From positions 62,001 through 126,000 of the forward strand of contig NW_005201421.1 in assembly GCF_000372725.1 (NCBI RefSeq): a DNA stretch of 64,000 nucleotides, written 5' to 3'. How positions within the stretch are numbered: position 1 is the stretch's first letter; the number at the start of each line of letters is the position of its first letter. A program made the translations under genes and the position numbers. Under the pieces are notes generated by a model that was not told where the DNA came from, searched no databases, and worked only from the letters and a program-made list of their open reading frames with translations. Shown piece after piece: positions 1 to 62,044 of the stretch. Source of the DNA: Emiliania huxleyi CCMP1516 (Eukaryota).

Positions 1-3000
1 GCGGCAGCGCTGCCAAGCTGAGCTGGGCGCGGCTGCCGCTCGCGCTGCACGTAGTCTGCGACTCCGGCGCCCGCGCCGACGGCAGGGCGGAGGATGACTC
101 CTCAGCGGAGCACTCAATGAATGGCTCGTTAGGCTTCCGCGCCGAGGACCTGCGGCAGGGCGGCGTCGGCGACTGCTGGTTCATGAGCGCGCTCGCCGTG
201 GTTGCCCAGCGGCACGACTTGATCGCCCGCATCTTCTCCGCCGACACGGCGCGCAACGCGGCCGGCTGCCTCGCTGCCTGCGCAATGGGGGAGAAACACT
301 GAAGAGACGGCCGGCTCAATGCTCAGGCGCGCAACGCGGCCGGCTGCCACTGCCTGCGCCTCTTCCTCGACGGCGCGTGGACGTCAGTCTGGATCGACGA
401 CCAGCTGCCGGTGACGGCGGCGCCGCGGCGAGACCACCTCGCCTTCGACACAAAGCTCGCCTTTTGCCGCTGCGGCTCCGCGAGCGGCGAGCAGCAGCTG
501 TGGGCGTCGCTGGTCGAGAAGGCGCGCGCCGACGAGGAGTCATCACGACGTGGGAGTGAGAGGAGGGATGACTAGTGACTGTTGATGACTAGTGACTGTT
601 GATGACTAGTGACTGTTGATGGGCGCCGCTGGTCGGGCAGGCGGAAGTCGCATAGCAGCTATCTCCCCCATATCCTCCCCCATATCTCCCCCACATCTCC
701 CTCATATCTCCCCCATACCTCCCCCACATCTCCCCCACACCTCCCCCACATCTACCCCATCTCTCCCCCACACCTCCCCCACATCTACCCCATCTCTCCC
801 CCACATCTCTCCCATGTCTCCGGGCAGGCGTACGCCAAGGCGCACGGCTCGTACCAGTCCATCTCCGGCGGCTGGGTGGCCGAGGCCCTTCTCGACCTGA
901 CCGGTGCTCCCACCGAGATGCAGCACCTCGGCTACTCCGCGCGTGAGTGAGCCATGAGTGAGGTCACCGACGAGCACAGGCGCGCCCACCGAGATGCAGT
1001 ACCTCGGCGACGCCCGCTTCGACTCGGAGGTGCCAGCTCCACCGCCACACCGCGCCACGACGTGCTGGGACAACCTCCAGCCGACCCACGGGTGCCCAAG
1101 CCGCCTCGCGCGTCCCAGCCCGACCGGCCCTCTCGGCGGCAGGCGACGTGGGCTCGACTCAAGGCTTACGCGGCGCTCGAGCTGCCAATGGGGTGCGGCA
1201 CGAACAACGCCGAGGGGAGCAACCTGAGGCAGGTCGGCCTCGTCGGCGGGCACGCCTACTCGATCCTCGACGTGAGGGAGGCGGCCACCCGCGCGGGCGA
1301 GGTGGCCGCGCTTGCTGCTGCGCTGAGGACTCGCTGGCCACGAGTCGCTCGTTAAGACTTTAGGCGGGGTGGTCCCCCACATCTCCCCCACATCTCCCCC
1401 ACATCTCCCCCACATCTCCCCCACATCTCGTCCTGACGTAGGCGAGGTGGTCCGCCTGCTGCGCGTGCGCAACCCGCACGGCTGCACAGAGTGGAACGGC
1501 GACTGGAGCGACGCGTCCGACAAGTGGGCCGAGCTCGTCGGAGGCGTCGAGGGCGGAGGCGGCGCCTCGTCCCCCTCCGGCGCCGCCGCTCTGCCTCTGT
1601 GCCCCTACGGCGCCGCCTGCTACCGGCGCAGCTCGCAGCACCGCGCAGAGTACCGCCACCACCGGCTGCCGACCGACCAGGCTGCGCGAGGCGGCGGAGG
1701 AGGCGACGGGTTCGACCGCACGGGAGTGGACGACGGCACGATCTGGGTCGGCTAGGCCAAAGCCCAAGAGGGCTTCCGCCTCATGGCGCCTTGGTGAATG
1801 AGCTAGGCACCTTCTGGATCGATTACACCAAATTTATGATGGGGTTTAGCCACGTCGACGTCTGCTACGCCTTCCGCGGCTGGCGCGCCTCCTCCTCCCC
1901 CCAACCACTGCTTGACTGGCAGTGTGGCTCATCGACCAACCATCGGCTATAGGCACGCCTCCTCCTTCCCAAACCACTTCCCGGCGGAGCGAAAGACGGC
2001 GAGGCGCGTCTGCGCGAGCGTGCTCACCGTGCGGCCGGCCGAGCGGGCGGCGACGCTGATGGTGATGGCCCTCCAGCCGACCAAGCGAGGGGCCTGGTGC
2101 CGCGCGGACCGCAAGAAGTCCTACCGGCTCGGCGACGTCTCGCTGCTGATCGGCCGCCCCGCCGACGGCGGCTCGGGCCTGTCCAAGGCACGCCCGTGAC
2201 ATGTCCGGCACATGTCCCTCAGGCCGCCTCACCGACGACGGCTCCGCCATCGCCTCGCTCGTCGGCGGGGGCCTGCGCGGCGCCGACCCGCGGCGAGCGG
2301 ACGCAGGCAAGGACTCGCTGCTTGAGCTCGTGCTTCGCTGGCTAGGCGCCGACCGCGGCGAGCGGACCTGGGTGGCGCGGCTGGACGACCCGTCGGCGTC
2401 GTATGTGGTCGTTCCGCTCTGCTTGGGCAACAACCCGACCGCGGCCGAGTCGACCGCCCGCCAGCCCTTCTCGCTCCGCCTCTGGTCGTCCGAGCCGTTG
2501 CGCGTCTCCAAGGCGTCGAGCTGCCCACCCGAGAGTACCCGAGAGGACCCGAGAGGACCCGAGGGGACCCGAGAGGAGCCGAGAGGAGCCGAGAGGAGCC
2601 GAGAGGAGCCGAGGACCCGAGGTCACCCGAGGTCACCAGAGGTCACCCGAGAGGACCCGAGGTTACCCGAGGTTACCCGAGGTCCCCCGAGGTGGTTAGG
2701 TGTCGAGCTACCCTCCTGCGGAGGCGGCGAGCTTCCTGGCGGTCGAGAGGAGCAGCGAGCTCGCGCTGCAGGAGCCCGTTCAGCTTAGCCAACCAGAGGA
2801 GGAGTGAATGGGAATGAATGGCTGTGCGAGCTCGCCCTCCCCTCGTAACCCACATACCCCCGCCACCCACACACACCTTGCAGGCCCTCACCCCGCCTCG
2901 CTGTCCCCTCACCCCTCGCCTCACTGTCGCAGGCCCTCCACCTCGCGCTCGCCTCGCGTGTCTCTCCCGCGGCCGCCTCACTGCCGCGAGGGCTCGCCCG

Positions 3001-3761
3001 CGCCCCCGAGCTCGAGAGGCTGATGCTGCAGCCCGAGCACGCACCCCTCCTCTTCGCGGAAGGCGCCGACGCGCGCATTAGCCGGCGCGCGACAGACCCC
3101 TCTCGCCGAAGCTGCTCCCTCATGAAGAGCTACCTCCTTCCTCGCTTCACTACTCAGGCGCGTCATCCGCCTCTCGCCGACCGCCGCCGTGCTCACCGTG
3201 CGCGGCTCCGAGATCACCCTCATCGCCGCCTACAACTGGGGGCGGCCGGACGAGGAGCACCTCGCTCTGCGGGCGACGGCGTACGTCAAGTCGTGCAGCG
3301 CCCGCTCGGCCGACGGGCTGCTCACCAACCAGAAGGAGCGCGCCGACGCCTGCTGCCGCCCGAGGGGGCGTGTCGTCGACGCGCCACGGACATGTCCTGG
3401 ACATGTCCCGTAGGAGCTCGCCGACGCCTACTACCGGCGGCGCGCCGACGAGGAGGAGAGGGCCAAGGCCGAGCGGGCGGCGCGCGGCGTGCCGCCGCCG
3501 CCGGCGAACGGCGAGCGTGGGCCGCGCTGGCCCGCGAAGTGGCAGGCGTACCGCGCGTTCGGCAAGGTTGCGCCGCGGTCGCGCCGTCTGTTCATGGTGG
3601 TGGCCGCGTCGGGCGTGCAGGAGGAGCTCGGCGCCATCGACGTCGAGATCGCCGACGACCACGACCACGGGGCAACCGCCGCCGGCCCGTCGGCCGCGTC
3701 TAAGCGAGAGGCCGCCGCCGCCAGCTCCGCCACGGCGATGCACCGGTGGCTGAGCCACGCA

Positions 3762-3802
<41 letters not shown>

Positions 3803-4013
3803 GGCCGGCGGCGGCGCCTCACCGTGGGCGCGCGGCGCGTCGTCAGAGGGCGTCTTCGCCGCCGCGCCCTTTGCGCCCGAGGAGCGGATCGCTCTCGCGG
3901 TGCCTTCTTGTACGAGTGAGCACTGAGCCGCATCATTCTGACGAGTCAGGAGTGGCTCGCCATCGAGGTCTTTCTGCGCGCCAAGCGGGAGGGCGGCGGA
4001 GGGGCGGCCTCCA

Positions 4014-4060
<47 letters not shown>

Positions 4061-4687
4061 GAGGAGGCATTGGCGGCGGTGCTCGAGGCTTCGGCGCGGG
4101 AGCACGAGGCGCGGCAGGCGGGCGACTACGGGACATGTATGTGGAGGACGCGTCCGTGACACGTCCGCGGCACGTCCCTCCAGGCGCGGCAGGCGGGCGA
4201 CTACGAGGCCGCTCTTGCCGCCTCGCGCCGCCTGCAGCCTCAGCCTTGGGCGGCGCCGCCGAGCTCTCAAGACGACCCCGACCTCGCTGCCGCGATCGCC
4301 GCAAGCTTGCAGCCGGCGCCGAGCGAGGGCGCGGCTCTGCACGATCTCGCCCGGCCGGACGCTGCCGGCGCCGACCCCGACCTCGCTGCCGCGATCGCCG
4401 CGAGTCTCGCCGACGTCGAGCGGGCGGGGACCGATGTTGCGGGGGGCGCGGCTGGGAGGGGGGAGGAGGAGGGGGCGTTTCAGCGCGCCCTTGCGCTCAG
4501 CCGGCAGGCAGGCACGGTGGCGGCGGGCGGGCTTGGCTGCGAGGAGGCGCCGATCGAGCTCTCCGACGACGACGGCGGGGCGACGGAGGGGGACGAGCCG
4601 GAGGAGCCAGCGGGGGAGGCTTTGGCGCCGCCCCCGCCGCCTTCTGCCGAAGAGGTCCGCGCAGCGCGGCTCCGGCGGTTTGGTTAG
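1..4687 (+). CDS. Calpain-family cysteine protease (peptidase C2), multi-exon, 5' end outside window; PBZ zinc finger insert and C-terminal UIM-like repeats
   Basis: Spliced exons give QGGVGDCWFMSAL (catalytic Cys, ~160-190), FLDGAWTSVWIDDQLP, EKAYAKAHGSY, GHAYSILDV (His, ~1250), RVRNPHG..EWNGDWSD (Asn, ~1470) and DDGTFWIDY. C-terminal DPDLAAAIAASL x2 and stop at 4687 (…RLRRFG*). Assigning 3900-4687 to this gene is inferred. Confidence 0.85.
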
Positions 4688-6152: not shown

Positions 6153-9133
6153 ATGGTTGCAGAGTTCGCAATCTCGCGGCGCCGCGCCGCGGCGCTGCTC
6201 CTCGCCGCCCTACTCTCGTCGTCCCTGCCAGCGGCGAGCGCCGCAGCTGCGCTGAGGCTCCCCCGCTTTTGGCGGAGAGGAGCGGACAAAGCAGCGTCGC
6301 CGGCCAACTCGGCCGGCACTCCGCTGCCCGCCGCTGCCCCGCCGCAGCCGCTGCTGCTACCGCCGCCGCAGCCACCGCCGCCGCCGCCGCCGTCTCCGCC
6401 GACCGCCGAGGCGCTGCGGCAGCGAGCTGAGCTGCTGGAGCTGGAGGCAGAGAGGCACGCCCTCGAGGCGGCCGCGCTGCGGCTCGAGACAGAGCAGCGC
6501 CGGCTGAGCCGAGGCGAGTGGCGGCCGCCGGCGTCTCCAGCAGCGAGTGGGGCGCCGCCGGCAGCCACTTCCCCGCCGGGCGGCGGTTTGGGCGAGCGGC
6601 TCGACGTGTCTGCGGATCAGGCGGGCGGGAGAGAGGCGGGCAGGGAGGCGGGCAGGGAGGCCGAGAGAGACGGCTCTGAGGGGATGGAGGGCCGCGCGTT
6701 CGACGAGGGGCTCGAGGCGGCGGTGGCGCGGCTGCAGGAGGCGCTCAAGGAGGCGGGCGAGGAGGGCGAGGAGAGCGAGGCGCAGGCGAGGCGCCGCGCC
6801 GCCAGGAGCCTTCTCTGAAGCGTCTCCTCAGTCTCCCGTAGGAGAGCGAGGCGCAGGCCAGGTACCGTGCTGCCTGGGGCGACCTCGGCCTTCCCCCCGA
6901 CCGCTTCCCGCTCGAGGATGGCGCCGTGAGTGAGGCGCAGCTTGCGGCGCTGCAGTCGGAGGTTGTCGGCCTTCACCTGCCCCCCCCTCCCCCCAATCAG
7001 CAAGGAATGAGTTCCTTTATTGACGAATCATCAGGTCTTCGGGATCGACTCCTTCCTCCCCTCCTCCGCCGCCGTCACCCCGTGCGGCGTCTTCTTCTCG
7101 GGATCGCTGCGCAAGGCGCCGCCCGACGCGGCGGCGCTGCTGCAGGAGCGGCTGTCGTGCGAGCTCAGCCGTCCTCCTTCGGTAGCCCCTCACCTGACTG
7201 CCCTCACCTGACTCGCTGCTGCAGGAGCGGCTGTCCGCGAGCGAGTCGCTGCGTGACTCGGTGCGGCTGCTCCTGCCGCGCGAGCCGCTCTCCTGAAGGT
7301 CCTGAAGGGTTGGGGACGGACCGCCAGTGACCTGCCCCCTCGCAGGTCCGCCTCTTCCTGTTGCGCGACCCGCTCTACGCCCCGTCGCTCGAGGTGCCCG
7401 AGCCGGCGAGCGCGTCCGAGGACCCGCACGAGGAGGAGCTATCTCCCCCTATCTCCCCCGTATCTCCCCATATCTCCCCGTGTCTCCCCATAGGACCCGT
7501 ACGAGGAGGAGCTCTTCCTCATCTCGCTGCCGCCGCCCGTCGTCCTCGCCCTCCCCGCCGCCCTCCTCCCCGCAGCAGCCACGGGCTCCGGAGAGGCAGC
7601 CCGCCCCCTCGCACCACCCTCCGGCCCAACCCTCCCCGGCCAGCGCTGGCAGCAGGCTGACGCGAGGACGCACTCTCTCCGGTAGGCTGCCCCGCTGCCT
7701 CTCTTCGCCTGGTCCGCCCTCTCCGTCTTCACCACCGCCGGCGCCGCCCTCGGGGCACCCTCCTCCGCAGTCGCCCCTCCGCTCGCCGCCGCCGAGTCCG
7801 CCGCCGCCGCCGGCTCCGGCAACGGACGCGAGACGCCCAGCGCGGACCACGACTGCCCACTTCCTCACTCCCTCTTGTTCTGTGTTGAGCGCAGGCAACA
7901 TGGTCGAGCTTCTCGACGCAGCGGCGTACGCGGCGCCCATCTACGCCACCGTCGCCGCGCTGCTTCTCGCGCACGACGCGGCGCACGTGGTGGCGGCGAG
8001 GCGGCACGGCCTCCCCGTCAAGCCTCCCCTCCTCCTCCCCTCTGTCGAGCTCGGAACCTTCGGCACGCACGCGCTGCTCGGCGCCTACCCGCCCAGCCGC
8101 ACCGCCCTCGCCGACTTCGCGCTCTCCGGACCGCTCGTCGGCACCGCCCTCTCCGCCGCCGCCTTCCTCGCCGGCCTCGCCCTCACCGCCGCCGCGCCCG
8201 CGCCGCTCCTCGACTCCTTCCCTCGCCTCTCGCCAGCGATGCTGCACTCGTCGCTCCTCCCCTCGCTGCTGGTCGACGGGCAGCCGACACACCTCGCTCG
8301 CCCACGCCCCCCCTGAACACAGCCACCCCCCCCCCACCCCACCCCCCCCAGGGGGCCAGGACACACGTCCCTCAGGGTCGGGTTTTACCAGAAGGCGCCG
8401 CCGGAAGCCGCCGCTTTGCCGGTGCCGGTGCACCCCCTTGCCATGGGAGGGGCTTTCCGCTTTTCAGGACCCTTTCCATCCCCCCCCCCCCCCAAAAACA
8501 CACCCCACGGACCTTTCCCCGCCCTTACCCCCCCCCCCCCCCCACACACCACCACCACCACCACTCCTCCAACCGCCCCTCCCTCGCGCGGCCAGGCTTC
8601 CTCTCCCTCCTCGGCAACGCCCTCTCTCTCGTCCCGTGTGGCCGGCTCGACGGCGGCCGAGCAGCCACCGCCTGCTTCGGGCGGAGAGCGTCCGAGGCGA
8701 GGGGGCCTGACTGCTGCCGTCGTCGTGCTGTGAGCAGCGCCTCTTCACAGCTGCCGCGGGCTGTGAACACAGGCCATGGGCGTGCTCTCGGTCCTCGTCG
8801 TGCTGTCCGCCGTCGCGCTCAACGACGGCGCGCTCGGTCGCCCGCGCCCTGGGGCGATGGGTGAATGAGGGACTCATGGCATTGATGAACGCGTCAGGCG
8901 CGCCGGAGCTTCTCCTTCTCTGGGGCGGCGTCGTGCTGCTCCCGCAGCTGCTGCAGCAGGGCGAGGTGCCGTGCGCCGACGAGATCACGCCGCCGCCAGA
9001 GTCGCGCCGCCGCGCATTCCTCGCGCTTGTCGTCGTCGCCATCCTCTGCCTGTCGCCCGCGCCGCACGCCGAGCCCGCCCTCTCGCTGGACTCGTTCGCA
9101 GAGAGCTTTGGCGCGGCGGGCATTGCGTTGTGA
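6153..9133 (+). CDS. EGY-like site-2 (M50) membrane metalloprotease homologue, multi-exon, N-terminal signal peptide
   Basis: Hydrophobic leader; VFGIDSF and GVFFSGSLR; HDAAH..AARRHG..PPLLLPS..LGTFG..DFALSGPLVG; VHPLAMG; GNALSLVPCGRLDGGRA; PCADEIT near the C-terminus. Confidence 0.75.
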
Positions 9134-11133: not shown

Positions 11134-14100
11134 CTACAACGCGCTGGTATGCAGGACCCGCCGGCGCTGGAACAGGGCGCCCGAGGCCGCGTCGCTCGCG
11201 AGCTGGGCGCTAAAGGACGGCCGCGTGGCGCGCGTCGCCGCTGGGGCGGGTGCCGGCGCCGCCTTGCCCCCGACGCCCTCCTGCTGCGCCGCCGCCTCCG
11301 CGCGCCTCGCCATCCGCAGCTGCATCTCCAGCATCACATTCGCCTGCGTGCCCCCCGCGGGAGGAGCGGGCGGACCGCTCGGGCGAGCGGCCGGGGCCGC
11401 GCCGGCGCCTTTGGCCATGCGCTGCTTGCGGGCCCTCTCGCCGTCGTCGCGCGCGTTGTCTGCGTGGGCCGCCTTGAGAGCGCGCACCACTCCGGCAATC
11501 GGGCCGAGCAGCTCTGCCGGGCTCGACGCGGGCTTCTCGCCCAGCCAGGCGGCGAGCGCCTGGGGGTTTAGGGTCAGGGTCAGGGCCAGGGATTAGGGTC
11601 AGGCGAGGCTTAGCTTCTCGTCTAGCCAGCCGGGCGAGCGCCTTGACGCGCCCTTCCGCCGCGGCGAAGTTGCCACGCAGCTCCTCGAGCGGCCCCTCGA
11701 CCTATGCAAACGGCGAGAGGCGTGAGGCGTCGCCCCGCACGCCACGCAGCCCTCGCTCGCAGCCCCCCCGCCTCCGCGGCGAACGCGCCCATTTGCCGCG
11801 CAAACGCGCCCTCGCCGGCCTTTGCAGACTGCACCGTGCGCATGGCGGCGCCCAGCTTGGCCAGCTCGGCGCGCATCTCTCCAAGGTCGGCGTCCTTGGC
11901 GCCCTCCAGCTGGGAGAGCTGCTCGTCGAGCGCGGCCACCGACTCGGCGGCGGGCGCCTTCTCGAGGCGGCGGCAGAGGTAGTGCAGCAGCGTCGTCTGC
12001 GAGTCGGCGGACTTGACCTGCACCAGCTTGGCCAGGTCGGCGAGCTTGAAGCCGTAGGCGCCGCCGCGCGCCGACTGGCCGTTGAGGTAGTTTCCGACGC
12101 AGAGCACTCGCTGCAGGAAGGAGCGGAGGCCCTGCGATGAGAAGACCTGCAGCGAGGGCTCGGCGAGGGCTCGGAGGAGGCTCGTGGGCGGGGAGCGGGC
12201 GGCCCCACACGCAAGAGAGACCTGCTCGATGGCCTCGGCGAGCATCGCAACCTCCTCCCCCATCGCCGCGACCGCGGGACCGAGCGTGAGCGTCGCCTGA
12301 CGGGCAGGGCCAAGTGTGTTCGCCCGTGGCGCGCCGCCCCTCCACACCGCTGCCCGCGTGAGTCTGTGGCCGCCTGCAGGCAGTTGAGCCGCAGGCCGAG
12401 CCGGTCGACCTCGCCGAGGCAGAGAAAGAGCTGCTCGACGCGGCCGAGCGACTCGCGCTCCCCCGAGAACTCGCGCACCGTCTCGAGCTCCTCCGCGGTG
12501 GGCATCGCCGACAGGAGCGCCGACACCTGCTCCAGCGAGAGCGGCGGCCCGTCGCACACGCGCGCCTTGATCTCGCCGTCCGGCAGCCGGAGCCTCGCCA
12601 TGGCGATGGCGACGTTGTTGGAGCGCTTGACGTCGATGAGCGCGATGTTCTTCTCGGCCTTGCCCTTGGCCGCCGCCGGCGCGCCCTTGCTCTCCTTCTT
12701 GGCCGCGGCGGGAGGCGCGATCCCAAAGACCTCTTCCACCTCCGCCGGGTCGAGGTCCGCCTAAGAATAGATCCAGACCTACTGACGGGCGAATCGAGAG
12801 CGACCACCCCTCCGCCGGCCCTTTCCGCCTTGGAGTCGTCGATCTCTTCGAGCCACACCGTGCCGGCCAGCCGCGCGTCGGGGATCTTGGACCAGTGGAG
12901 AGGCTTCAGGGGGAGGGCGGGGGTCCGCTTCGCCTTTGGCGGGACGAGCGGCCGCGCCAGGCTCGGAGGCACGGGTGGCGGAGGGGGGGCGCCCGGAGTC
13001 GACGGCGGCGGAGGGGCAGGAGGAGGAGGAGGGGCGCCACCGGCGATCGGCGGCGGCAAGGGGGCGCCGCCGAGGGGCGGCGGAGCGAGGGGCGGCGGAG
13101 CGAGCGGCGGCGGAGCGAGCGGCGGTGGCGCCAGAGGCGGCGGAGCGAGCGGCGGCGGAGCGAGCGGCGGTGGCGCCAGAGGCGGCGGTGCGAGCGGCGG
13201 CGGAGCGAGGGGCGGTGGCGCCAGAGGCGGCGGTGCGAGCGGCGGCGGAGGAGCGAGGGGCGGTGGCGCGAGAGGAGGTGGCGTGGCCGGTGGCGGCGCG
13301 GCAGGCGGCGGCGGCGTCTTCTTGAGCGCTTCGAGCTCGGCCTCGGCCCGAGCGAGGGCCTCCCTCAGCTGAGCGATCGACGCGTCCCTCTCCTTGAGGC
13401 TCTCTCCGAGGGCCTCGCCCGCATCGCTCGCATCGCCGGTCGCCTCTCCGGAGGCGGCGGCGGCGCCTCGGACCACCTTCTCTGACGCCGCTGCCGCTTC
13501 CGCGGCGGCCTGCACGGCGCGAGCCTTCTCCAGGGACTCTGCCGCCTCGCTCCTGGCCGCAGCCTCCTTCGCCTCTGCCGCTTCCGCCGCGCCTTGCGCT
13601 GCGGCAGCCTGCTCTTTTGCCTTTGCGGCCTCGCGGCGCCAGCGCTCCACCTCGGCCTCAAGCGCTCGCACCGCCTCGGAGTGCGCAGCCGCGGTCTCGT
13701 CCGCCGATGCGTCTTCCTGCGTGCCGCGCGAGGGCGGCGGCGGCGCTGGCGGCTGTGCGACGGCGGGCGGCGGCTGCGATGGCGGTGAAGGCCGCGCTTG
13801 TGGCGAGGGCTTGGGAGGAGGGCCACCCGGCGGTGGCGGCGGCTTCCCTCGCGGTGGCGGCGGCTTCCCTCGCGGCGGCGGTGGCGGCCGCGCCGGAGCC
13901 GGTGCGTCGCGGCTGCAGCCTTGGTCGCCCGCTGTCTGTAGCTCGGTGGAGTCCTCAGCCATCTCTCGGTCGAAGATTCGGACTTGCGTGTCGAGCTCGT
14001 CGCCGCGGCCAGAGAGGAGCCGGCGCGACGCCTCGAGGAAGCCCGCGGCCGCGAGCTCGCCGCGCAGCTCAACGCGGTCGCTGATGGACGCGCGGCCCGA

Positions 14101-16407: not shown

Positions 16408-19400
16408 TCACGACCACAGCTCCTTGACAAGCCTGCCCTCGCCCTCCATCCGAGACACGAAGGCGGCAGCCTCCGCCTCGCTCAGCTTGCCGTGCTCGAC
16501 GGCGGTGCGCTGGAGCGCCAGCACAACCTCCCTCCCCATGGCGGTGCCGCCGCAGATGTAGAGGTGGCCGCCGCGGCAGCCCAGCAGCGACCACACCTCC
16601 CTCCCGTCCTCGCGCAGCAAGTCCTGCACGTACACCTACCGCACGTTCTCACGGACGAGTCCTGGACGCATCCCGTCCTCGCGCTGCAATTTGTCGCAGC
16701 GCCCACACCTTGCGCGCTCCGTCGCGCGAAAAGGCGCAGCGCAGCGTGCCGAGCAGCTTGCCCTCGAGGGCGGCGGCCAGCTCGTCCTCGTACAGGTAGT
16801 CGCCCCGCGCGTGCCGGCAGCCAAAGTAGAGCCGCGTCGGCCCCGTCCGGCCGCGCCCCTCTGCCGCAGCCACGCGCATCTCCTGCAGGGCGGCGCGGAT
16901 CCACAGAGTCAACGAGTGGCCACGCTCATTGCTACGGTCGGAGGGGTGCCGCAGTCTCCTGCAGGAAGGCGCGGAACGGGGCGATGCCGGTGCCGGGACC
17001 GACCATCACCACCGGCGTGGCGCCGTCGCAAGGCAAGCGGAACGAGGAGCGGCGCACAAACGCGACGACGGACCGGCCGGCGGCCGCCGCCTCGAGCTGC
17101 GTGCTGCAGACTCCGAGCTTGGTGCGGTGCGGAGCGTCCCTGAACGGCTCGCGCAGCACCTGGCCTCGGGGCGACCTCGGGTGAACCTCGGGCGATCTCG
17201 GGCGATCTCGGGTGACCTCTGCTGATCTCGGGGCGACCTCGGGCGATCTCCGGTGATCTCGGGTGATCTCGGGTGATCTCGGCACCTTGACGGTCAAATG
17301 CAGCGTCGTGCGGTCGAGCGACGGCGAGGAGGAGATGGTGTAGTAGCGCGGCGCGAGGCGGGGCAAGAGCTCGAGCAAGCCTAATGGACGACGGGCGGTG
17401 ACTCACAGCCTCGCACCGTCCACGAGGCGGGGCGCGAGCTCGAGCAAGCCTCCGAGCGGCGGAGAGAGGGAGGGCATCTCCTGCAGCAGCTCCGCGGCGC
17501 CCCGGCCCGCCGCGACGACGTGCGCGGCGTACTCCTCCTTGCCCGCCCGCGAGGAGAGGTGCCTTCATCCACAACGCGGCAGCAAAGTCAGGTCCCTCGC
17601 CCGCCCCGGCCCGCCCTTGCCCGCGCCCGCGAGGGAGGAGGAGGCGCCTCAGCCGCGCCGCCTCGGCAGGGTCGGCTGCGTGCGCCGCCAGGAAGCGGAG
17701 CAGTGGCTTGGACGCGGCCGCGCGCAAGTCTGCGACCCAGCGCAGCGCCTGCCCGACCGCGCACGGGGTCGGGAGGATCGGGTTAGGGCTAGGGCTGCGG
17801 GTCTGGGGTGGCTAGGGTTAGCAGCGCCTGCCCGACCGTGCACGGGGTCGGCAGCGGCGGCGGCGGCGCGTCCGACCCGGCGGAGGGGTGGGCGAGGCGG
17901 AGGCGGAAGGTGGAGAGCGGGTCGAGGCCGAGCCGCGCGGCGGTGGCGGCGGCGAGGGCGGCGCCTGGGGTAAGGGGTCAGGGCCAGGGTCAGGGTCAGG
18001 GTCAGGGTCAGGGTCAGGGTCAGGGTCAGGGTCAGGGTCAGGGTCAGGGTCAGGGTCAGGGTCAGGGTCAGGGATAGGGTCAGGGTCAGGGTCAGGGTCA
18101 GGGTCAGGGTCAGGGATAGGGATAGGGATAGGGTCAGGGTTGGGATCTGGGTCCGGGTCCGGGTCTCGGGTGGAGGCGGCGAGAGCGGCGCCGTTGTCGC
18201 AGAGGACAGCGAGGTCGTCGGCGCACTCGTACCTCAGCCAGGTGACTCCGCGCCCGTCGCCTGCAGGGACATGTCCACGACACGTCCGGGACATGCCCGC
18301 ACCTCAGCCGGGTGACTCCGCGCCCGTCGCCCGCGGAGAGCGAGATGTGGCGGACCGATCCGCTGGACGCGTCCCGGCAGAGCTCGCGGTTCTCGCAGAC
18401 CTGCGGGACGTGCCACGGACATGTCATGTCATGTCATCGACATTCACGGACCTGATGTCATGGTGAGAGCGTCAAAAGTCAGGCCTGGCCCGCCGCCAGG
18501 CGCTGCTTCGGAAAGACGGCTCCGAGCCAGGCGAGGGGAGGCGCGTCGGAGCCAGGCTCGGAAACGCCGCCCGCCGCCGCCGCCGCCGACGGCGCCGCCG
18601 CCGACGGCGCCGCCGCCGCCACGACGGCGACGTAGCTCGGCGCGGGCGCCTCCTCCTCCGCCTCCTCCTGGCCGTCTGCCTGGTCGGACCCGCCGCAGAG
18701 GGCCACCCACAGGGAGGCGCGCCACGACTCAAAGTCGGCGTCGATGTCGCCGTCGTCGTCTCCCAGCCCGAGCGGCGCCAGCCTGCAGGAAGGGTCCAGG
18801 AAGGGTCCGGGAGAGGGCCTAGTCGCGCAGTCGGCGAGACACAGGCGGAGCGGTGTGCCGTCTCGCTCCGAGGGCGGAGAGGCGCGCGTCCACCCACTTG
18901 CCCATCGAGTTGTAGTGCTCGTACTGCGTGTTGCCTACCTCTCCACGTGCCGGTGTGAGCTGACCCGCCCGCCATCGCCTCACTCCTCTCGCCACTGGTC
19001 GCCGAGCCCAAACGCTGCATACTGCAGCGCCGCGAGGCAGCCGGGCTCGCGCGACGCGTCGCTGGCCCAGCGGTGGAAGGCGACCGTGTTGTCGGTCGGG
19101 TCTCCCTCGCCGTGTGTCGCCAGCAAGAAGACGCAGGGCCCCTCCACGCCGCCCAGCTCCTCTGGCGGGAGCTCCTCGAGGTCGAGCGCCCGTGCGGCGT
19201 ACCCCCGCACACGCGCCTCGCGCATCAGCGTGGTCGCGAAGCCCTCAGCCGTGCCCGTCTGCGAGCCGAACAGGATCGTCATCGGCCCGCGACCCGCCGC
19301 TTTCGCGCCGACGGCTCGGACGGGCGCCGACGGCTCTTCTCGAGGCGGAGGAGGAGCGCGCCGGCCGCGCTTCCAGCGAAGCAGCAGCCAACTGGCAATA

Positions 19401-19459
19401 AGCACAACAATCGTGGCGAGGCCGGACGAAAGGTCGAGAGCCGGCGAGGGGTTTGGCAT
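16408..19459 (-). CDS. NADPH-cytochrome P450 reductase-like diflavin oxidoreductase, multi-exon
   Basis: N-terminal [16 protein letters not shown] and [11 protein letters not shown] (FMN domain); [44 protein letters not shown] ending. Confidence 0.9.
17974..18140. repeat. Intronic telomere-variant array (GGGTCA)n
   Basis: More than 20 hexamers with GGGATA variants inside the reductase gene. Confidence 0.9.
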
Positions 19460-19521
19460 GTGAAGTGCCGGCGCGGCCGCAGCGTAGGGGTCGCACGAAA
19501 AAAAAAACGGGAACGCAGAAT

Positions 19522-19577
19522 GAGCTCCCCGGCCCTGGATGTGCGGTTGATGACTGCACTCCAAGTGCTCCAAGTGC
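19522..19577 (+). repeat. ~55 bp dispersed repeat
   Basis: AGCTCCCCGGCCCTGGATGTGCGGTTGATGACTGCACTCCAAGTGCTCCAA is nearly identical to ~57893-57943. Confidence 0.8.
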
Positions 19578-24733: not shown

Positions 24734-26720
<1,987 letters not shown>

Positions 26721-28864: not shown

Positions 28865-28889
28865 AGTGAAGGGGGCGGTGGCCGGCAGA

Positions 28890-45765: not shown

Positions 45766-48700
45766 ATGAGCGGCCACGCCAATGGCCACAACGGCGTGGG
45801 CCCGGGCAAGTTTGTCTACCCAGACTCGCCGCTGCACGAGCTCTTCCACCAGCAGGTGGCGCGGACTCCCGACCGGATCGCCGTCATCGACCAGGAGCGG
45901 GAGCTCACCTACACAGAGCTCAAGCGGCAGACACAGACCCTGGCCCTGTCGCTGCGGCACCGCGGCGTGAGCGAGGAGCAGCCGGTCGTGCCCATCTTCA
46001 TGCCGCGCTGCCTCGAGTTTGCCGTCGGCTACATCGCGGCGCTGTCAGCGGGCGGCGCCTACCTCCCTCTGGAGGTCGGCTACCCGGCGGAGATGCTGCG
46101 GCGTGTGCTCGCCGAGGCGAAGCCGGTGCTGACGCTGACGCTAGAGAGCCAGGCGGCAAAGCTGCCCGCCGACGCGCCGCGCCTCTGCCTCGATCCCGGC
46201 TGGGAGGAGGCTTGTGCGCTGCTGCCGGCCGAGCTGGCGGCTCTCCCGTCGCTGGCGACGAGCCTCGAGTCGCTCGCGTACTGCGTCTACTCTAGCGGGA
46301 CGACGGGCGAGCCGAAGGGCATCTCCTGCCCGCACCGCGGCTCCGTCCTCTCGTACTCCCACCGCGCGCACCACGCGCCGTACGCGGCGGACGGCTCCGA
46401 CCGCGAGGCATGCAACGTCTTCTTCGTCTGGGAGATGCTGCGGCCGCTGCTGCAGGGGGCGACGCTGGTCGTGGTGCCGGACTCGGTCATCTACGACCCT
46501 CCCGCCCTCTCCTCCTTCCTGGAGCGGCACGCCGTCACCCGCATGCTCTTCACGCCCTCCCTCCTCGAGGCTGTGCTCGACTCGCCCGCCCTCGCCTCTG
46601 GCGACGAGCTGCGGCGCGCCTTTGCCGCCTTCCGCGTGGTCGTGCTGTGCGGCGAGGTGGCGACGGCGGAGCTGCGCGCGCGGGTGCTCTCTCTCGCCCC
46701 CGCCGGCCTCAAGCTGCTCAACCTCTACTCCATCTCCGAGTGCCACGACGTGTCCATGGTCGACCTCGCCGCCACGCCGCCGCCCGAAGGAAAGTACTGC
46801 TCGACCGGCCCGCTGTTGGACGGGGTCGAGGTGCTCATCCTGGAGGACGCGAACCAGGCGGAGAAGTCGGGCGAGGCGCAGCGAGGGGCGGACGCCGCAA
46901 AGGCTCTCCGCCCCGTCCCGCTCGGCTTGCCGGGCGAGGTGTTCGTCTCCGGTCCCTGCCTCGCGCGCGGGTACTTGCAGCGGCCCGACCTCACCGCCAA
47001 GAAGTTCCTCCCGCGGCCTCCCTCCCTCTCGGCGACGCCCGCGCCGCAGACGCCCGGCCAGGACGCGGCCTCGCCCGCCCTCTACTCGCGGCTGTACGAC
47101 ACGGGCGACTGGGGCAGGCTGCGGCCGGACGGGACGCTTGAGATCTTCATTGATAGTTAATTAATCGTTCACCAGTTAATTAATCAGGCTGCGGCCGGAC
47201 GGGACGCTTGAGATCTTGGGGCGGCACGACTCGATGCAGAAGATACGCGGCTACTCGGTGGAGCTGCGCGCCGTCGAGGCGGCGCTGCTGCAGTGCCAGG
47301 GGGTCACCTCGTGCGTGGTTCGCGTGGTGGGCGAGGAGGGGACGGACAAGCATCTCGCCGCCTTCGTCGTCTTCGAGAGAGAGCGAGACGGGGGCAGCGC
47401 CGGCGAGGCGGCGCCGCGCCAGGCGCGCGCGGAGCTGCACGCGGCCGTGCCGCACTACATGGTCCCGTCCTTCATCGTCCCGATGGACGAGCTCCCGACC
47501 AACGAGGTCTATTAATTAATTATTAATTAATTAGGTCCCGTCCTTCATCGTCCCGATGGACGAGCTCCCAACCAACGAGTTCTCGGGCAAGCTCGACCAC
47601 AAGGCGCTGCCGAGGACGCTGCCGGAGCTCCTCCGCTTCGTCGAGAGCAGCGGCGGTGCGCGGGGGCCGCAGCTGCGCACGCCGACCGAGGCTGCGGTGG
47701 GCAAGGTGTGGGCAGAGGTCCTCGAGCTGCCCGCTGCGATGGTCGACCCCGAGGAGTCCTTCTTCGACCAGGGGGGGCACTCCCTCCTCCGCGCGACGAG
47801 GCTAATTAACAAGTAATGGTTAATTAACAGTTAATTACTTCATTAATTAGGCACTCCCTCCGCGCGACGAGGCTGATCGCCGCGCTCAACCAGGGAGGCT
47901 ACCCGGCGGTGCGCGTCGCCTCCCTCTTCGAGCACCCCACCATCCGAGAGCTGTCCGCGCACCTCGACGCTGACGGAGCCAGCCGCGCGGACAAGGCCCC
48001 GCACACGCCCCTCCCCCGCTCCGTCGTGGAGAAGGAGATTGCGGCCCTGGCGGGCGGCATGCCCGTCGGCTTCGACTCGGCTCTGCGCGCGTACTGGCAC
48101 GGCGTCTCTCTCGCGAGCAGGCGGGTCCTCTCGGCTCCTCTCGGCTCCTCTCGGCTCCTCTCGGCTCCTCTCGGCTCCTCTCGGCTCCTCTCGGCTCCTC
48201 TCCACTGACTGGCACGCAACTCTCTCTCTCTCGCGAGCAGGCGGGTCGACAGCTACTAATAATATATAATTAATAATATTATTAGGCGGGTCGACAGCTG
48301 CTCGTCGCAGTCGGCGAGCCGCGTGGGGAGCTACTCGTCGCTGCTGGCTCTCGGGGCGGAGGGGGGGCGGGAGGAGGGGTGCAAGGCGCGGGAGGAGCCG
48401 CTGCAGCTCGGCTGCGCGGGCGAGTGCGTCTTGCTCACCGGGGCGACCGGCTTCCTCGGCGCCTTCGTGCTGCGCGAGCTGCTCGCGGCTAATTAACTAT
48501 GAATGAGCTATTAATTATCAATTAGGCGCCTTCGTGCTGCGCGAGCTGCTCGCGGCGGGGGAGAGAGGGCCGAAGACCATCTTTTGCCTCGTGCGCGCGT
48601 CGGCGACGGAGACGGCGCTTCGACGCCGTGAGGGGCACGATGGCACCGTGAGAGCGTCTCCTTCACACCTGCAACTGTGAACAGGCGCTCGAGCGCGTGA

Positions 48701-51575
48701 TGGGCACGCTGGAGCGGTTCGGGCTCTGGGAGTCCGAGGGCGGGTGGGCGGCGCGCATCGAGGGCATCGAGGGCGACACCGCTCTCAAGAGCCTGGGCCT
48801 CTCCAACGACCACTACCAGTACCTCGCCACTGTGGTCGACCGCGTCATCCACGCCGCCGCGCGCGTCAACCTCGTCTTCCCGTGCGCGATGCCCTAGCTA
48901 GTCACCCGTGAGCAGTGTCGGTGGTGGGGAAGTGGGCGCGATGTCTCTCGCTCGGCTGAGGTTCTGGGCTGAGCGGCTGTCGGAGTGTGTGCCGCAGGTA
49001 CGCGCGCCTGCGCAGGGACAACGTCCTAACCCTAACCCTAACCCTAACCCTAACCCTAACCGCAGGTACGCGGGCCTGCGCAGAGACAACGTCGTGTCGA
49101 CCACGCGCGTGCTCCACTTCGCGATGGACCACAAGGTGAAGCCGGTGACCTACGTCTCGACCGACGCCGTCTTTCGGCCAGGCGACGCGCGGCCCGCGCG
49201 CGGAAGAGAGGGCGAGGCCGAGTGTGAGTCCTCTTTCACACCGCCCCCCCCTCTCCCTCCCTCAGGCACGCGCGGACCGCACGCAGAAGGCGAGGCCGAC
49301 TTGGACGCCGAGCTGCCCCTTCTCACGACCGGCTACGCGCAGTCCAAGTGCGTGGCGGAGCTGCTTGTGCGCGAGGCGGCCAAGCGAGGGCTAATTAGCT
49401 AACTAATTAACTATTAATTAACTACTAATTATTAATTAGGCGGCCAAGCGAGGCTTGCCCACGACCATCGTCCGGCCAGGCAAGCCCGAGATTACCCGAG
49501 ACTACCCGAGACTACCCGAGACTACCCGAGATTACCCGCCTGCCCACGACCATCGTCCGGCCAGGCAAGCCATCGCCGGCTGAGACACCTCTGCGTCTCT
49601 GCGTCTCTGCCCTTCACGCTCCCCGCGTGTGCGCCATTTAGGCAACCTTGGTGGGTGCGACCCGCGCGCCGCCATCCGACCGCGAGGCGCGCGTTCGCTC
49701 CTCCGCGCCGATGACACGCCGATGACACGCCCGTGACACGCGCGTGACACGCCCTCCTCCCCCTGCAGGCACGCGCCAGCTCATCCACGCCGAGAACGTG
49801 TCGATCGGGCGCACGCCCCGCTTCGACGCCGCAGAGCAGGTCAAGGCTGCGCTCGACGCCGCCGAGCGGTCGCGAGGCGGGCCGAGCTCTCTCTCGGACA
49901 AGGTCGCCGCCGCTGGCTGGAACAGCTCCGACTCCAACTTTCTGATGCTGGTTGGCTGCGCGCTGCTCGGCGCGGCGCCTGGCGGAGTCGGCGGGTGGAG
50001 CTGCGAGCTGACGCCGGTCGACTTTGCGGCGCGCGCAGTCGTGGCCCTCTCGGGCGACTCTGGCGCGGTCGGCCAGGCGTACAACCTGGTCAACTCCGAC
50101 GCGACTCTGCCTTGGGACGCCGTGCTCGACGCGGCGCGGAGCTGCGGCGTCGCGGTCGAGTCGCTGCCGTACGCAACCTTCCGCGAGCGGCTCGAGGCTG
50201 CCGCCGGCGGCGCGTCGGAGGCGGCGCAAGCCATCCTCCGCCCGCTGTGGGACTTGCTGAGTCCACTGGCCACTCCGGAGGTGTCGCCGCCGTCGCGCGC
50301 AGCCGTTCCCGCCTGCGCCCCTTCACGGCCGTGTGTCTGTGGACAGGCACTCGCCGCCAACGACGCCACCGCCTCCTTCGAGAGCGCCGCCTTGCGCGCC
50401 GTCTGCAGCCGTCGCGGCGCGGGCGCCTACCCGCCTCTCGACATCGCGCTCGTGCGCGAGTATTGCTGGCACCTCCTCGACGCTGGCGTCTTCCCGCGGC
50501 CGGCGGTCGGAGGCGCGGCCGGGGGCGCCGAGCCGCGCCGCCTCACCGGCCAGGTCGAATCTCGGGTAATCTCGGGTAATCTCGGGCTTGCCTGAGCCGC
50601 GCCGCTTCACCGGCCAGGTCGCCGTCGTCACCGGGGCCTCGGGCGGGATCGGCGCGGCGATCGCGCGGCAGCTCGCTGCGGCGGGTGCGGCGGTCTGCCT
50701 GGCGGCACGGCGGAAGGGGCGGATCGAGTCGCTGGCGGGGGAGCTGTCCCGCGCGCACGGCGTGCCCACCCTCGCCGTGGTTGCGGACGTGACCGACCGG
50801 GCGTCCGTCAAGGCGTGCGTGCGCGAGGCGGAGGGTGCGCTCGGCCCTGTGAGCGTGCTGGTGTCCAACGCGGGCGTGATGCACTACACGCTGATGAAGA
50901 ACCTGCACGAGGACGAGTGGGCGCAGGCGGTCGACGTCAACTGCAAGGGCATGCTCAACGCCGTCGGGGCGGTGCTGCCCGGCATGCTCTCGCGCGGCAG
51001 AGGCCACATCCTCACAATCACCTCGGACGCGGGCCGCAAGGCCTTCCCCGGCCTCTCCGTCTACAGCGGCACAAAGTTCTTCAACGAGGCGGTCTCGCAG
51101 GGCTTGCGCGCCGAGTGCGTCGGTACGGGCGTCAAGGTGACGACCGTGCAGCCGGGCGATTGCCGCTCCGAGCTCCCCGCTTGCACGACCGACGAGGAGG
51201 CGCGCGCTCGCTACGCGCAGCGGCCCCGCGTCTCTGCTCCCGCGATGCACCGCGCTTGTCGCTCCTCTCCACGCCGCACCCGCCCTCCCCTTGTACTCCT
51301 CACCGTGCCCGTCTCTCCTCGCGCGACGCACACCGGTCTGCCCCTAAGGCGCGCGGCATCTACGCGCAGCCGTCCAAGGACCGCAACGTCTGGCTCGACC
51401 CGCTCGACGTCGCAGACACCGTCGTGTGGGCCCTGTCGCAGCCGCCGCACGTCGCGGTCCGCCCCCGGGAGGAGGTCGTCGAGCCGCGAAGGCGTGACAC
51501 GTCCCACCACGCGTCCTCGGCACGTCCGCATAGGTCAACGAGGTCCTCGTTGAGCCGCGGGACGCGCCCGCGTGA
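45766..51575 (+). CDS. NRPS-like A-T-R-R reductase (glycine betaine reductase ATRR-type), multi-exon
   Basis: A domain YSSGTTGEPKG, CNVFFVWE, NLYSISE, YDTGD, KIRGYSVEL; T domain FFDQGGHSL; R1 LLTGATGFLG, GYAQSK; SDR R2 VTGASGGIG, NAG, YSGTK; stop …EPRDAPA*. Confidence 0.9.
49026..49060. repeat. Intronic telomeric repeat (CCCTAA)n
   Basis: CTAACCCTAACCCTAACCCTAACCCTAACCCTAAC read directly. Confidence 0.9.
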
Positions 51576-55531: not shown

Positions 55532-55592
<61 letters not shown>

Positions 55593-59199: not shown

Positions 59200-62044
59200 T
59201 CAAAACTGATCTACCGGCAAGTGAGCGGTGGGGAACGCGGCCTCCGCCGCCGCCTCCGCCGCTGTTGGCGGGGGCCGAGCGGCGCTGGCCGCCGCGGCCG
59301 CGGGGAGGTCCTGCTCCTGGCTGGCTGCAGCGGCGTCCTGCAGCCGCCTGTCGACCGAAGTGAGGAGCTGCTCGAGCCGCGCTAGCCTATCGGCAAGCAA
59401 AGTCCGCCGTGCTCCCTCGGACCGACTTCCTCCCGGGGAGCCGCTCGAGCCGCGCTCGCCGCTGCTCAAGCGCGTGGAGCTGCGCCGCACCGCCCCCGTC
59501 GCCGCCGCCGCCGCCGCAGCTGGTTGGCGGAATGGTCGCGGCGAGGAGGGGCGGGGTAGACCCGTTGGCGCGCGCCTACGGGCAAGGGCTCCGAGAAGGG
59601 TCCGGGACGGGGCGAGGAGGAGCGGGTTGGACCCGCCAGTCCTACTACCGACGGCGGCGTGGCGGAGGGGCGGTGCGAGAAGCGGCCGGTCTCTGGGTCG
59701 CGGCAGCAGCCCATCTCCTGCGAAGTGGCCGCCAAGCAAGGGTGGGTGAGCCGAGTCAACCACGAGCGGTCTCTCTGCCGTGCTCTCTGCCGCGGGGTGG
59801 TGTGTGGGGGGGCGGCGAGGCGTCTGGACGGCCGTGTCGCCGCGGTGTCCGGGAAGTGTCCGGGAAGTGTCCTGGGAAGGAGCCGTGCGAGCCCTCTCCT
59901 GAGTCATGATCGAGATGATGGAGGAGAGGCCGACCACGCCGGTCAGCATCGCCATCGCCCCCACGAGCCGGCCCGCCGTCGAGAGAGGCACGAGATCGCC
60001 TGCGCTCAGCCAGTCCAGTCCGCCAGCCTTACTACTCTCGGGCACATCTCGGGCACATCTCGGGCACATCTCGGGCACATCTCGGGCACATCTCGGGCAC
60101 ATCTCGGCTTCAGCTCGCCATACCCCACCGTCGTCACCGTCACCAGCGCCCACCAAATCCCGTCACGCACCTGCAGCCGAGGTGCAGCCGAAGTGCAGCC
60201 GAAGTGCAGCCGAGGTGCGGCCGAGGTGCGGCCGAGGTGCGGCCGAGGTGCGGCCGAGGTGCACCGACTGGAAGGGCGCCAAGCGGCACTCCCCTTCCTC
60301 CTCCTCCTCCCCGCCTGGCTCGACGCGGCCCTCGCACTCCGCCCCGGCCACCTACTCACGAGTCGCCAGCTGGGGGGGGGGGGAGACTCGCACGCCGTAC
60401 CGCCCCGGCCCGCCCACCCACACGCCGCCGCCGGGCGAGCCGCCCGCCACGAAGGCGCCCGCCTGACGGCGAGGATCGCGGTACGCTGTCCTCTTGACAG
60501 AAGGCGCTCAGCCTTTCCTGTAGTCTCGGAAGCGTCTCGGAAATGTCTCGGAAATGTCTTGGAAGCGTCTCGGAAGCGTCTCGGAAAGCGCAACGCGTAG
60601 CCGAGACGAGATGAGAACAGGCGGGCCGAGATGCGCCGAGATCGTACCCGCGCCTCCGCGTGGAAGACGAACCCTCCCAGGATCAGGTTCTGCAGCATGA
60701 GGAAGAAGAGAAGCAGCCGCAGCGCGGGCAAGCAGCGGCGGACGCACGCGGCGAGGGCCTTGCGAGAGGACGCGGGGAGGCGGGCGAGGGGTAGCCGAGA
60801 GGTAGCCGCGATGCAGCCGGGAAGCAGCGGCGGACGCGCCAACCTCTCGCCTGATCTCGCCTGATCTGTCCTGATCTGTCCTGATCTGTCCTGAACTCGG
60901 CGGATCTGGCCTGATCTCGGCGGATCTGGCCTGATCTCGGCGGATCTCGGGCCTGCAGCTCGGAGGACTCTTTTGCGAAGCGGAGCAGCCGAAGGATGCG
61001 GACGAGGCGCAGCACGCGGACCATCGCCAGGAAAGCCTAGGGTTAGGGTTAGGGTTAGGGTTAGGGTTAGACGAGGCGCAGCACGCGGACCATCGCCAGG
61101 AAAGCCTGGCGGGCTGGCGAACTAAGGAGTGTGCACTGCTCGCTGGGCGGAGACCGCGGGCCATCGCGGGGAGGGCCTGGTGGGCGGTGGGAGGTGCCTC
61201 GGAGGAGTCTCGGAAGTGCCTCGGAGTGTCTCGGACGCGTCTCGGGCGTGCCTGCGGGAGGAAGAAGAGGACGAGGCCGATCCAGAAGGGGAGGATCGCC
61301 GCGAGGTCGATGACCATCATCGGCTGCTTGGCGAGGCGCAGCCGCGCCTGCCACCCATGGAGAGTGGAGGAGAGGGCTCAATGAGAAGTGACTCCTCGCG
61401 CCTCGCCTCGTAAGGCTGAGCTGCGCCTGGCAGGCGGACGCGGGAGGCGGCTGCCTATAGGGTGTGGCCACGGGCAGGTCATCGGAATGAGCCGGCAACC
61501 GCCCAGTTGGGGAGGGCGCGGGCTGCGGCCTCCGCCCGTCCTCCTCCGCCGCCTCGTCGCCACGCCCGTCGGGGGCGACGATGATGCGAGTGATGTACTC
61601 TGCCGTGAAGCCGACAGCGACCAGCGCGTCGATGAGCCGCCAGCCGGGCCACGACGCCATCGCCGGCTCGGATTGGAGGACAAAGCAGAGGGTGGAGACG
61701 AGGATCGCGCCGAGGATGAGCTACACGCAACAGGGGGTCCTCTCTCAAAAGGCGTCATCACAGCGGCACGTGGGCAGGCTCGGATCCTACTGTGCGCCCG
61801 TCGGGTCCGTCACTCTTGATGTGCTAGTCGCTTCTCTCCCAACGTGGTGGAGAATTCTTTTGCTCACCCAGTGCACAACGAGTGCCGCGCGTGACGAGGA
61901 CGGCCGGTTGAGCAGGTCGTGGATCGCGGCGCGGTGTGTCGGCGCCCGGATGAGCGAGTTGGTAGCGACGGCGCTCGTGAGCGGCGGCGTGAGGTTGGAG
62001 AGCGGCGCGCTGCGTAGCGGGGCGCCGACGTACTCGCTTGACAT
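59200..62044 (-). CDS. Voltage-gated (Kv/Shaker-like) potassium channel, multi-exon
   Basis: FTAEYITR (S2), IDLAAILPFW (S3), VRVLRLVRILRLLRFAK (S4), IWWALVTVTTVGYGD filter, S6 GAMAMLTGVVGLS. Confidence 0.92.
61038..61069. repeat. Intronic telomeric repeat (TTAGGG)n
   Basis: TAGGGTTAGGGTTAGGGTTAGGGTTAGGGTTA read directly. Confidence 0.9.

Follow-up and report, generated by a model that had tools for sequence, protein, structure and literature searches.

Introns echoing the adjoining exon in a 64-kb window of Emiliania huxleyi: long duplications, simple-repeat fillers and possible routes of intron gain

How most gained introns arose is unexplained, and the duplication and repair routes proposed for them rest on few cases. 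In Daphnia, 4-12-bp repeats flank 33 cases among the new introns, a gain ascribed to repair of staggered breaks (PMC4202315). Here we describe introns in which one end is a copy, or echo, of the adjoining exon, in a 64,000-nt stretch of Emiliania huxleyi CCMP1516 (the window, from within which every echo count comes). They share with staggered-break gain in Daphnia pulex the direct repeat of the adjoining exon, intron polymorphism, repeated events at one site and parallel gains at the same position (PMC4202315, PMC3443670; comparisons with published systems rest on the accessible portions of the papers cited). Unlike in Daphnia, the duplicates span 13-50 nt (median 28, in 23 simple echo introns), make up at least a third of the intron and are found in about 70% of a gene's introns; the fillers are telomeric, AT-palindromic or 10-11-nt repeats, and the donors are mostly GC or GA.

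In the tandem-duplication (AGGT) model, as in the window, duplicated exon or junction sequence provides the splice sites and leaves the mRNA as it was (PMC3443670, PMC3265369, PMC4974935), and a potato duplication across an acceptor resembles our compound introns. That model, however, works without filler and requires AGGT within the duplicate, whereas unrelated filler of 23-56 nt separates the copies in 23/23 simple cases and the upstream exon ends in AG in only 23/42. Introners, reported in E. huxleyi and Chrysochromulina, likewise insert with a bias to genes in GC-rich sequence, and some carry an acceptor and take their donor from the target duplication (PMC9860276); but their target duplications are 3-9 bp and their bodies are alike end to end, whereas the window has long, variable duplications and shares short units only. 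Finally, 3' overhangs of up to 50 bp can yield tandem duplications, tens of bases arising from paired nicks, as shown for CST and Pol alpha-primase fill-in in mammalian cells, where the portions seen do not tie them to intron birth (PMC8355091). The echo introns are a variant of known gain routes, set apart by long duplications, repeat fillers, prevalence and an account of GC/GA donors. In the open literature covered, which did not take in the 2013 E. huxleyi genome paper or the 2016 Introner paper, no listed paper was seen to describe long exon echoes in haptophyte introns, and the accessible parts of PMC2784329 and PMC10290126 hold nothing on exon echoes.

Echo anatomy and excess over chance

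Long exon echoes are confirmed as a real and pervasive feature of the window. Spliced alignment to homologues gave models for a calpain-like gene (16 introns), an NADPH-cytochrome P450 reductase gene (11) and an ATRR-like gene (15), all with an open reading frame after removal of the 42 introns. When scored against coding positions sharing the same flanking bases, 29/42 introns echoed the adjoining exon at p<=0.01, that is, carried the Daphnia-type direct repeat at the insertion's opposite end, and 33/42 did so at p<=0.05. None of the control introns from other eukaryotes reached echo level (0/15, scores 0-6); these are short, in-domain introns from 11 of 80 homologue loci, long aligner 'introns' elsewhere being treated as spurious. 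The repeats were already known before the models were fixed, so that where an intron is placed within a repeat is not independent of the echo, and exact junctions are ambiguous inside identical repeats. Boundaries at 48121, 48459, 49182, 50554, 18261 and 16883 were chosen by hand from aligner alternatives or RNA lengths. Three calpain aligner introns (1580-1638, 1645-1702 and 4339-4458) were dropped, two because they lie in or beside a PBZ domain without counterpart in the guide protein and one because of its location in a low-complexity tail.

The excess was also seen in a non-periodic direct-repeat scan with the repeat-protein genes masked, in which spacings of 60-90 nt held 54 pairs (1.74 per unit) and spacings of 131-400 nt held 50 (0.185 per unit), about a ninefold difference. 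Intron-bearing genes held 36 echo pairs, compared with 0-2 in five shuffles of the same DNA. By sequence class (drawn by hand, 6.1 kb masked), these 36 lay in 27.3 kb of intron-bearing genes, with 1 pair in 20.1 kb of intergenic DNA and 1 in 10.5 kb of long exons.

Most introns of the three genes hold a 10-50-nt copy of adjoining exon next to a short filler. With a slash for the splice junction, the layout reads exon-G / G-copy, filler, AG / G-exon, and copy and filler make up the whole of 64-85-nt introns. In six of the 42 introns, the compound ones, a donor or acceptor already in place was duplicated a second time together with intronic bases; spliced cDNA is therefore excluded as the source for those events, and the copying in compound introns is at the DNA or pre-mRNA level. 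These introns recall the repeated breaks of Daphnia introns (PMC4202315). Unspliced forms of echo introns carry stops or frameshifts. Of 19 amino-acid differences between the copies, 11 had the homologues' residue in the second copy, 1 in the first and 7 in neither, and mismatches fell 13/9/5 by codon position, with no third-position bias, indicating that the first copy decays as non-coding DNA.

A first-pass annotation, made from the letters alone, had listed 15 echo sites, and all hold a direct repeat at intron-like spacing. Its duplication-plus-filler anatomy is supported, and its statement that the intron's 5' end copies the start of the next exon holds at 13/15 sites; the other two (17827-17749 and 50554-50617) are mirror-type, the 3' end copying the end of the upstream exon. 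The layout of its duplication model stands, with the amendment that the duplicate straddles the junction, can lie mainly on either side and also strikes existing donors and acceptors. It had counted at least seven unrelated genes: its list covers six (calpain, formin, P450 reductase, PhzF-like, ATRR-like and ion channel), the ATRR-like gene being counted once because its SDR domain lies inside the same 1452-aa open reading frame (ORF), and a seventh, M50-like, was found separately.

In the calpain-like gene, 12/16 introns echo at p<=0.01:

3..4687, plus strand: calpain-like gene with 16 modelled introns, its 5' end beyond the window (alignment to P0152; Pfam Peptidase_C2)
249..326, plus: GC-AG intron, exact 5' echo, 22/22 (spliced alignment, echo test)
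522..827, plus: compound intron, upstream exon end and donor copied internally, then a 10-11-nt repeat array; its outer ends are not significant in the echo test
904..979, plus: GT-AG intron, 5' echo 26/29 (spliced alignment)
1297..1441, plus: compound GC-AG intron, start of the next exon copied twice (echo test)
1736..1806, plus: GC-AG intron, diverged 5' echo 13/18; also in another DNA sample
1883..1952, plus: GC-AG intron, gapped 27-nt 5' echo (spliced alignment, echo test)
2153..2222, plus: GC-AG intron, 22-nt 5' echo (spliced alignment, echo test)
2280..2345, plus: GC-AG intron, 23-nt 5' echo with one indel (spliced alignment, echo test)
3336..3413, plus: GA-AG intron, 23-nt 5' echo, donor GA as at the exon start; an RNA piece begins at 3412
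4109..4183, plus: GC-AG intron, exact 5' echo, 22/22; also in another DNA sample

The reductase gene contains mirror-type and two-sided echoes:

16408..19459, minus strand: NADPH-cytochrome P450 reductase gene, 11 modelled introns
16883..16958, minus: GA-AG intron, echo on both sides, 17 nt at 3' and 9 nt at 5' (echo test)
17381..17449, minus: GC-AG intron, 5' echo 25/27 (spliced alignment)
17749..17827, minus: mirror-type intron, upstream exon end copied over 24 nt at its 3' end, plus 7 nt at its 5' end
17965..18191, minus: GC-AG intron, 23-nt 5' echo, long telomere-like filler (spliced alignment, echo test)
18261..18330, minus: GC-AG intron, 5' echo 31/33; equal-length alternative placement 18233-18302

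The ATRR-like gene includes compound introns and the polymorphic one:

45766..51575, plus strand: ATRR-like gene (adenylation-carrier-reductase-SDR), 1452 aa, 15 modelled introns, first 1352 nt intron-free
47118..47187, plus: GC-AG intron, exact 5' echo, 30/30, AT-rich filler; skipped in RNA, present in 3/3 DNA runs
47462..47534, plus: polymorphic 73-nt echo insertion, 50-nt repeat with 2 mismatches (44/45); alternative placement 47507-47579
47777..47850, plus: GC-AG intron, 27-nt 5' echo; skipped in RNA; a 3-nt insertion of the intronic copy is missing in other DNA runs
48121..48285, plus: compound intron of 120 + 45 nt, one junction having been duplicated twice in succession; RNA skips all 165 nt
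48459..48525, plus: GC-AG intron, exact 5' echo, 31/31; skipped in RNA, present in 3/3 DNA runs
48615..48684, plus: GC-AG intron, diverged 5' echo; the RNA contig leaves at 48619 and goes on with the second copy
48882..49065, plus: compound intron, duplicate taking in an older acceptor and 28 nt of exon; perfect telomeric filler
49376..49439, plus: GC-AG intron, exact 5' echo, 14/14, AT-rich filler
49480..49641, plus: compound intron, duplicate taking in 27 nt of exon end and an older donor
50554..50617, plus: mirror-type GT-AG intron, upstream exon end copied over 24 nt, plus 4 nt

In two of these genes a long intron-free first exon precedes introns clustered towards the 3' end (ATRR-like, 45766-47117, plus, 1352 nt; reductase, 19003-19459, minus, 457 nt). 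A duplication with filler also lies wholly inside an ATRR-like intron, away from its junctions (51200-51348, plus; 22 nt, spacing 81).

Splicing, and echo introns in other samples and homologues

In contigs of one RNA run (X11, whose matching DNA was not seen), 15/16 informative introns were removed at the predicted length, 5 in the ATRR-like and 10 in the reductase gene. The reductase contig is shorter by 429, 381 and 144 nt between its pieces, exactly what 5, 3 and 2 predicted introns add up to; ten reductase introns are therefore removed in RNA. The ATRR-like contig skips 70, 73, 74, 165 and 67 nt, then leaves at the 70-nt intron 48615; its 73-nt joint is uninformative because the DNA runs have the same joint, and five informative introns remain. 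Removal at G(T/C/A)...AG thus restores the frame in three open ORFs, as for spliceosomal introns. Transcripts keeping both copies, which the first-pass annotation had said would overturn its proposal, were seen once, at mirror-type intron 17749-17827, where run X11 differs at the acceptor -3 base (CAG to AAG). The public reductase gene model, P0121, has GT donors only and lacks most of the GC/GA introns supported by the RNA length sums. Over its first exon the reductase gene shows 99% identity with a protein labelled E. huxleyi CCMP1516.

The donors of the 42 introns are GC in 29, GT in 9 and GA in 4, and the donor equals the first two bases of the next exon in 36/42 (permutation mean 23.4, p 1e-5), as had been proposed from the letters; copying of these bases accounts for the GC and GA donors. 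The proposed G/GY proto-splice site proved too narrow, given the GA donors, although G does mark the junctions: downstream exons start with G in 42/42 and upstream exons end in G in 41/42, G making up 37% of the coding sequence. Since 18/42 junctions have the upstream G but no AG, the acceptor's A comes from the filler there. In E. huxleyi, 56-65% GC donors and frequent intron retention have been reported, the GC donors being ascribed to high GC content (PMC4028052, accessible part); the copied donor offers a causal account of that figure. The GC content of the window is 67%.

Echo introns were also found in DNA. Among 19 checkable introns, 18 were present in DNA contigs of other samples (9 calpain, 4 reductase and 5 ATRR-like, the last including one of which just the 5' part was seen). 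That the repeats are errors of assembly or coding duplications left unspliced, which the one retained intron and the absence of intron 47462 from every other sample would fit, is next to negligible as an explanation: sharing between samples and removal in RNA are general, the copies have diverged, and unspliced forms carry stops or frameshifts. For most sites this explanation is refuted.

The exception among samples, intron 47462-47534, is precisely absent in 3/3 DNA runs from three studies, with 255 letters on each side, and the intron-less allele joins 47497 (first copy) to 47580 (second copy), a haplotype not in the window. A De Bruijn collapse behind the DNA joint 47497-47571 was considered and rejected, as the joined haplotype is not in the window; two neighbouring introns with identical copies longer than 31 nt appear as 97-nt loop contigs in the same DNA runs, which also counts against it. 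A short run X6 piece within 47502-47559 leaves the depth of neighbouring bins unchanged, and we read it, short of proof, as coming from another locus.

Homologues bear on whether these positions are gained or old. The nearest ATRR-like homologue locus, L001, is intronless against 15 introns in the window, and a divergent ORF upstream of the homologue (L001:1-1095) marks the contig as genomic; L001 groups with the window protein as its sister in a quick tree, in which the window and sister rows share biased composition. In relatives, ORFs continue without a break across intron positions, 7 of them in calpain (P0144, 79% identical, 17-kb contig) and 9 in the reductase (P0125, 61%, 24.5-kb contig), and P0145, from a cluster including Prymnesium polylepis, likewise runs through calpain intron positions. 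These ORFs end in unrelated peptide, as a gene caller entering an intron would give, and they break at other codons than the window introns, one perhaps a single base from 1883. Such comparisons suggest lineage-specific gain of the echo introns. The ATRR-like protein is 68% identical to Aureococcus-type homologues compared with 59% to a homologue with an apparent Chrysochromulina label, suggesting a possible gene transfer between pelagophytes and the E. huxleyi lineage.

Alternatively, the positions could be old and their ends rewritten by local copying, through duplication over the junction or partial conversion by spliced cDNA, the echoes then dating the rewriting. The second duplications in the compound introns suit this, as does the one position shared with a distant eukaryote (L038, below); at 17765 and 17768, moreover, the window's intronic copy equals its exon where the other covering runs differ, which could be conversion. 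But no introns occupy these positions in homologue loci and ORFs, duplicates with intronic bases cannot derive from spliced cDNA, and 64-85-nt introns consist entirely of copy and filler. Existing junctions are about 5% of G/G[CTA] sites per side (42/773), so that a few re-hits are expected by chance. We consider such rewriting improbable.

Fillers and candidate routes of gain

As filler the introns carry AT palindromes, telomeric hexamers or 10-11-nt units, and the same families recur in different genes in either direction (13 sense, 14 antisense, 4 both), so that insert orientation is mixed overall; it is fixed for telomere-like fillers, C-rich on the sense strand in 4/4 introns found by pattern. 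A C-rich sense strand supplies branch-point-like motifs. In an all-against-all comparison of the 42 fillers of the window, matches were confined to short-unit repeats, with no end-to-end identity. The claim that these introns differ from Introner transposons therefore holds for bodies and duplication length, with the reservation that fillers share simple-repeat families. Hairpin arms average 4.6 in fillers compared with 3.9 in shuffles, terminal inverted repeats not having been searched specifically. The mixed orientation rules out sense-only retroposition of intron 3' ends as a general filler source. Clustering of filler types within a gene gave p 0.008 at one threshold and 0.09 at another; no nucleosome periodicity at 150-210 nt appeared among 39 intron spacings, at low power, and scans of viral contigs found nothing.

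Altogether, we think the introns were probably gained by staggered-break duplication plus filler, with two nicks about 28 nt apart, fill-in and simple-sequence insertion. Paired nicks 13-50 nt apart in exon DNA would make putatively staggered breaks with overhangs; filling in both overhangs would leave a duplicate of the exon, and simple-sequence filler would be inserted between the copies, telomeric fillers perhaps by telomerase and others by end-joining polymerases. The donor would be the exon's own G plus C, T or A, and the acceptor's G, often AG, would come from the duplicate; the filler would need only to end in A and to supply branch-point and pyrimidine context. A product would survive when it reads G/G(C/T/A)...AG/G, selection keeping events with filler abutting the acceptor, and the process may be directed to transcribed coding DNA. 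That the introns are gains, whether by this route or by an element-driven one, is likely.

Several observations weigh against the staggered-break explanation, its main gap being confinement to genes. Among simulated random events, 34% were spliceable by dinucleotides and 19% of those had the usual layout; with so few spliceable, random breaks should leave more repeats between genes, and the opposite was observed. Repair of staggered breaks, as first proposed, therefore has anatomy, splicing and probable lineage-specific gain on its side, but random breaks with selection do not explain the near absence of echoes between genes (1 against 36 within them): random breaks alone are insufficient, and a gene-directed step, linked to transcription or gene chromatin, is likely. 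At p<=0.05 an echo is missing from nine of 42 introns, RNA retains one intron, and local templating of fillers from 200-nt flanks is weak (6/31 at p<=0.05, some of it residual echo). The polymorphism is unpolarised, and the intron-less allele may be ancestral or a deletion by recombination between copies. Most checked introns are common to other samples, three perfect echoes among them, so that the suggested age series is borne out only in part: the polymorphic intron has 2 mismatches in 50 nt, and echo identity did not correlate significantly with filler GC (rho -0.35, p 0.11). As to homologues, L001 is Aureococcus-type and not haptophyte, and the relatives' intron positions are inferred from peptides only, from apparently genomic ORFs. 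An ancient shared position, named beforehand as damaging to the proposal, was seen once: L038 (41% identical) has a canonical intron at the position of 47462 (in that placement), the sole shared position among short introns of 11 loci examined.

Gene confinement would be expected of a targeted insertion machine, a reverse transcriptase or Introner-like element that nicks G/G in genes, primes there and writes a repeat ending beside A; this would still be intron gain, element-driven, and would leave an unusually long, variable target-site duplication of 13-50 nt. In 20/23 simple cases the intron junction is no more than 3 nt away from the left edge of the duplicate, against 19% in simulated random events. 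Selection for filler adjoining the acceptor could give this bias, which the retained mirror-type intron fits; nuclease or priming preference could give it equally. The G-ended upstream exons are as 1-3 nt of priming homology would give, filler families are common to genes, and the telomere-like fillers keep one orientation. For E. huxleyi CCMP1516 at least 653 Introner copies are reported, some Introners drawing their donor from the target duplication (PMC9860276, accessible part). Against such a machine, however, stand the fillers, alike only in short-unit repeats and antisense as often as sense, the short Introner duplications and the existence of mirror-type and intron-internal events, and we regard it as unlikely.

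A bolder version of gene-directed gain, which we advance tentatively and hold to be possible though doubtful, is an ongoing intron factory in which an enzyme nicks coding DNA at G/G, writes a telomeric or short-unit repeat and duplicates about 28 nt of exon. If true, it made most E. huxleyi introns within the lineage, and the GC majority of donors would come from it and not from base composition. Most introns of these ordinary genes show a legible footprint and one of them is polymorphic; because public genomes and many strains exist for the species, the mechanism, rate and polarity of intron gain become directly testable. The repeats also blur junction placement and break short-read assemblies.

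Smaller echo-bearing genes and other features of the window

Further echoes were placed by hand in four genes:

6771..6841, plus strand: GA-AG echo intron in a peptidase M50-like gene (weak Pfam match, E 0.001)
7146-7224, ~7261-7345 and 7421-7493, plus: further M50-like gene echoes
11560..11641, minus: GC-AG formin intron, gapped 5' echo, degenerate telomere-like filler
25801..25868, plus: GT-AG intron of a PhzF-like gene, 5' echo 21/24, AT-rich filler
61037..61105, minus: GC-AG intron of an ion-channel-like gene, exact 5' echo, 36/36, perfect telomeric filler

The formin echo (11641-11560) is 12/28 ungapped and 18/21 on a shifted register; this gene has the same 3' clustering of introns, after an intron-free first exon at ~12860-15350, minus (~2.5 kb by eye). 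The ion-channel-like gene has a weak Pfam match (E 0.005), and the telomeric filler of its intron holds in-frame stops. A cullin-like stretch occurs twice, at 26130-26276, inside the PhzF-like gene before an N gap, and at 30350-30478, 4 kb downstream, possibly by local misassembly or as a transposed fragment.

Shorter non-coding duplication-plus-filler units lie at 43575-43638 (21 nt exact + 22 nt) and 22172-22221 (17 nt + 16 nt). A long, apparently intron-free ORF at 37200-40820, minus, is less GC-rich, has internal cysteine-rich repeats and shows no echoes. Intron-poor repeat-protein genes lie at 5040-5570, 27850-28900 and 32900-35600, with units of 66, 156 and 99 nt, and may be MORN-like, RCC1-like and ankyrin. 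Non-coding segments are common, by eye, to 27060-27440 and 57860-58340, with a further shared motif near 19520-19580 and 57890-57950, and possibly represent a dispersed element.

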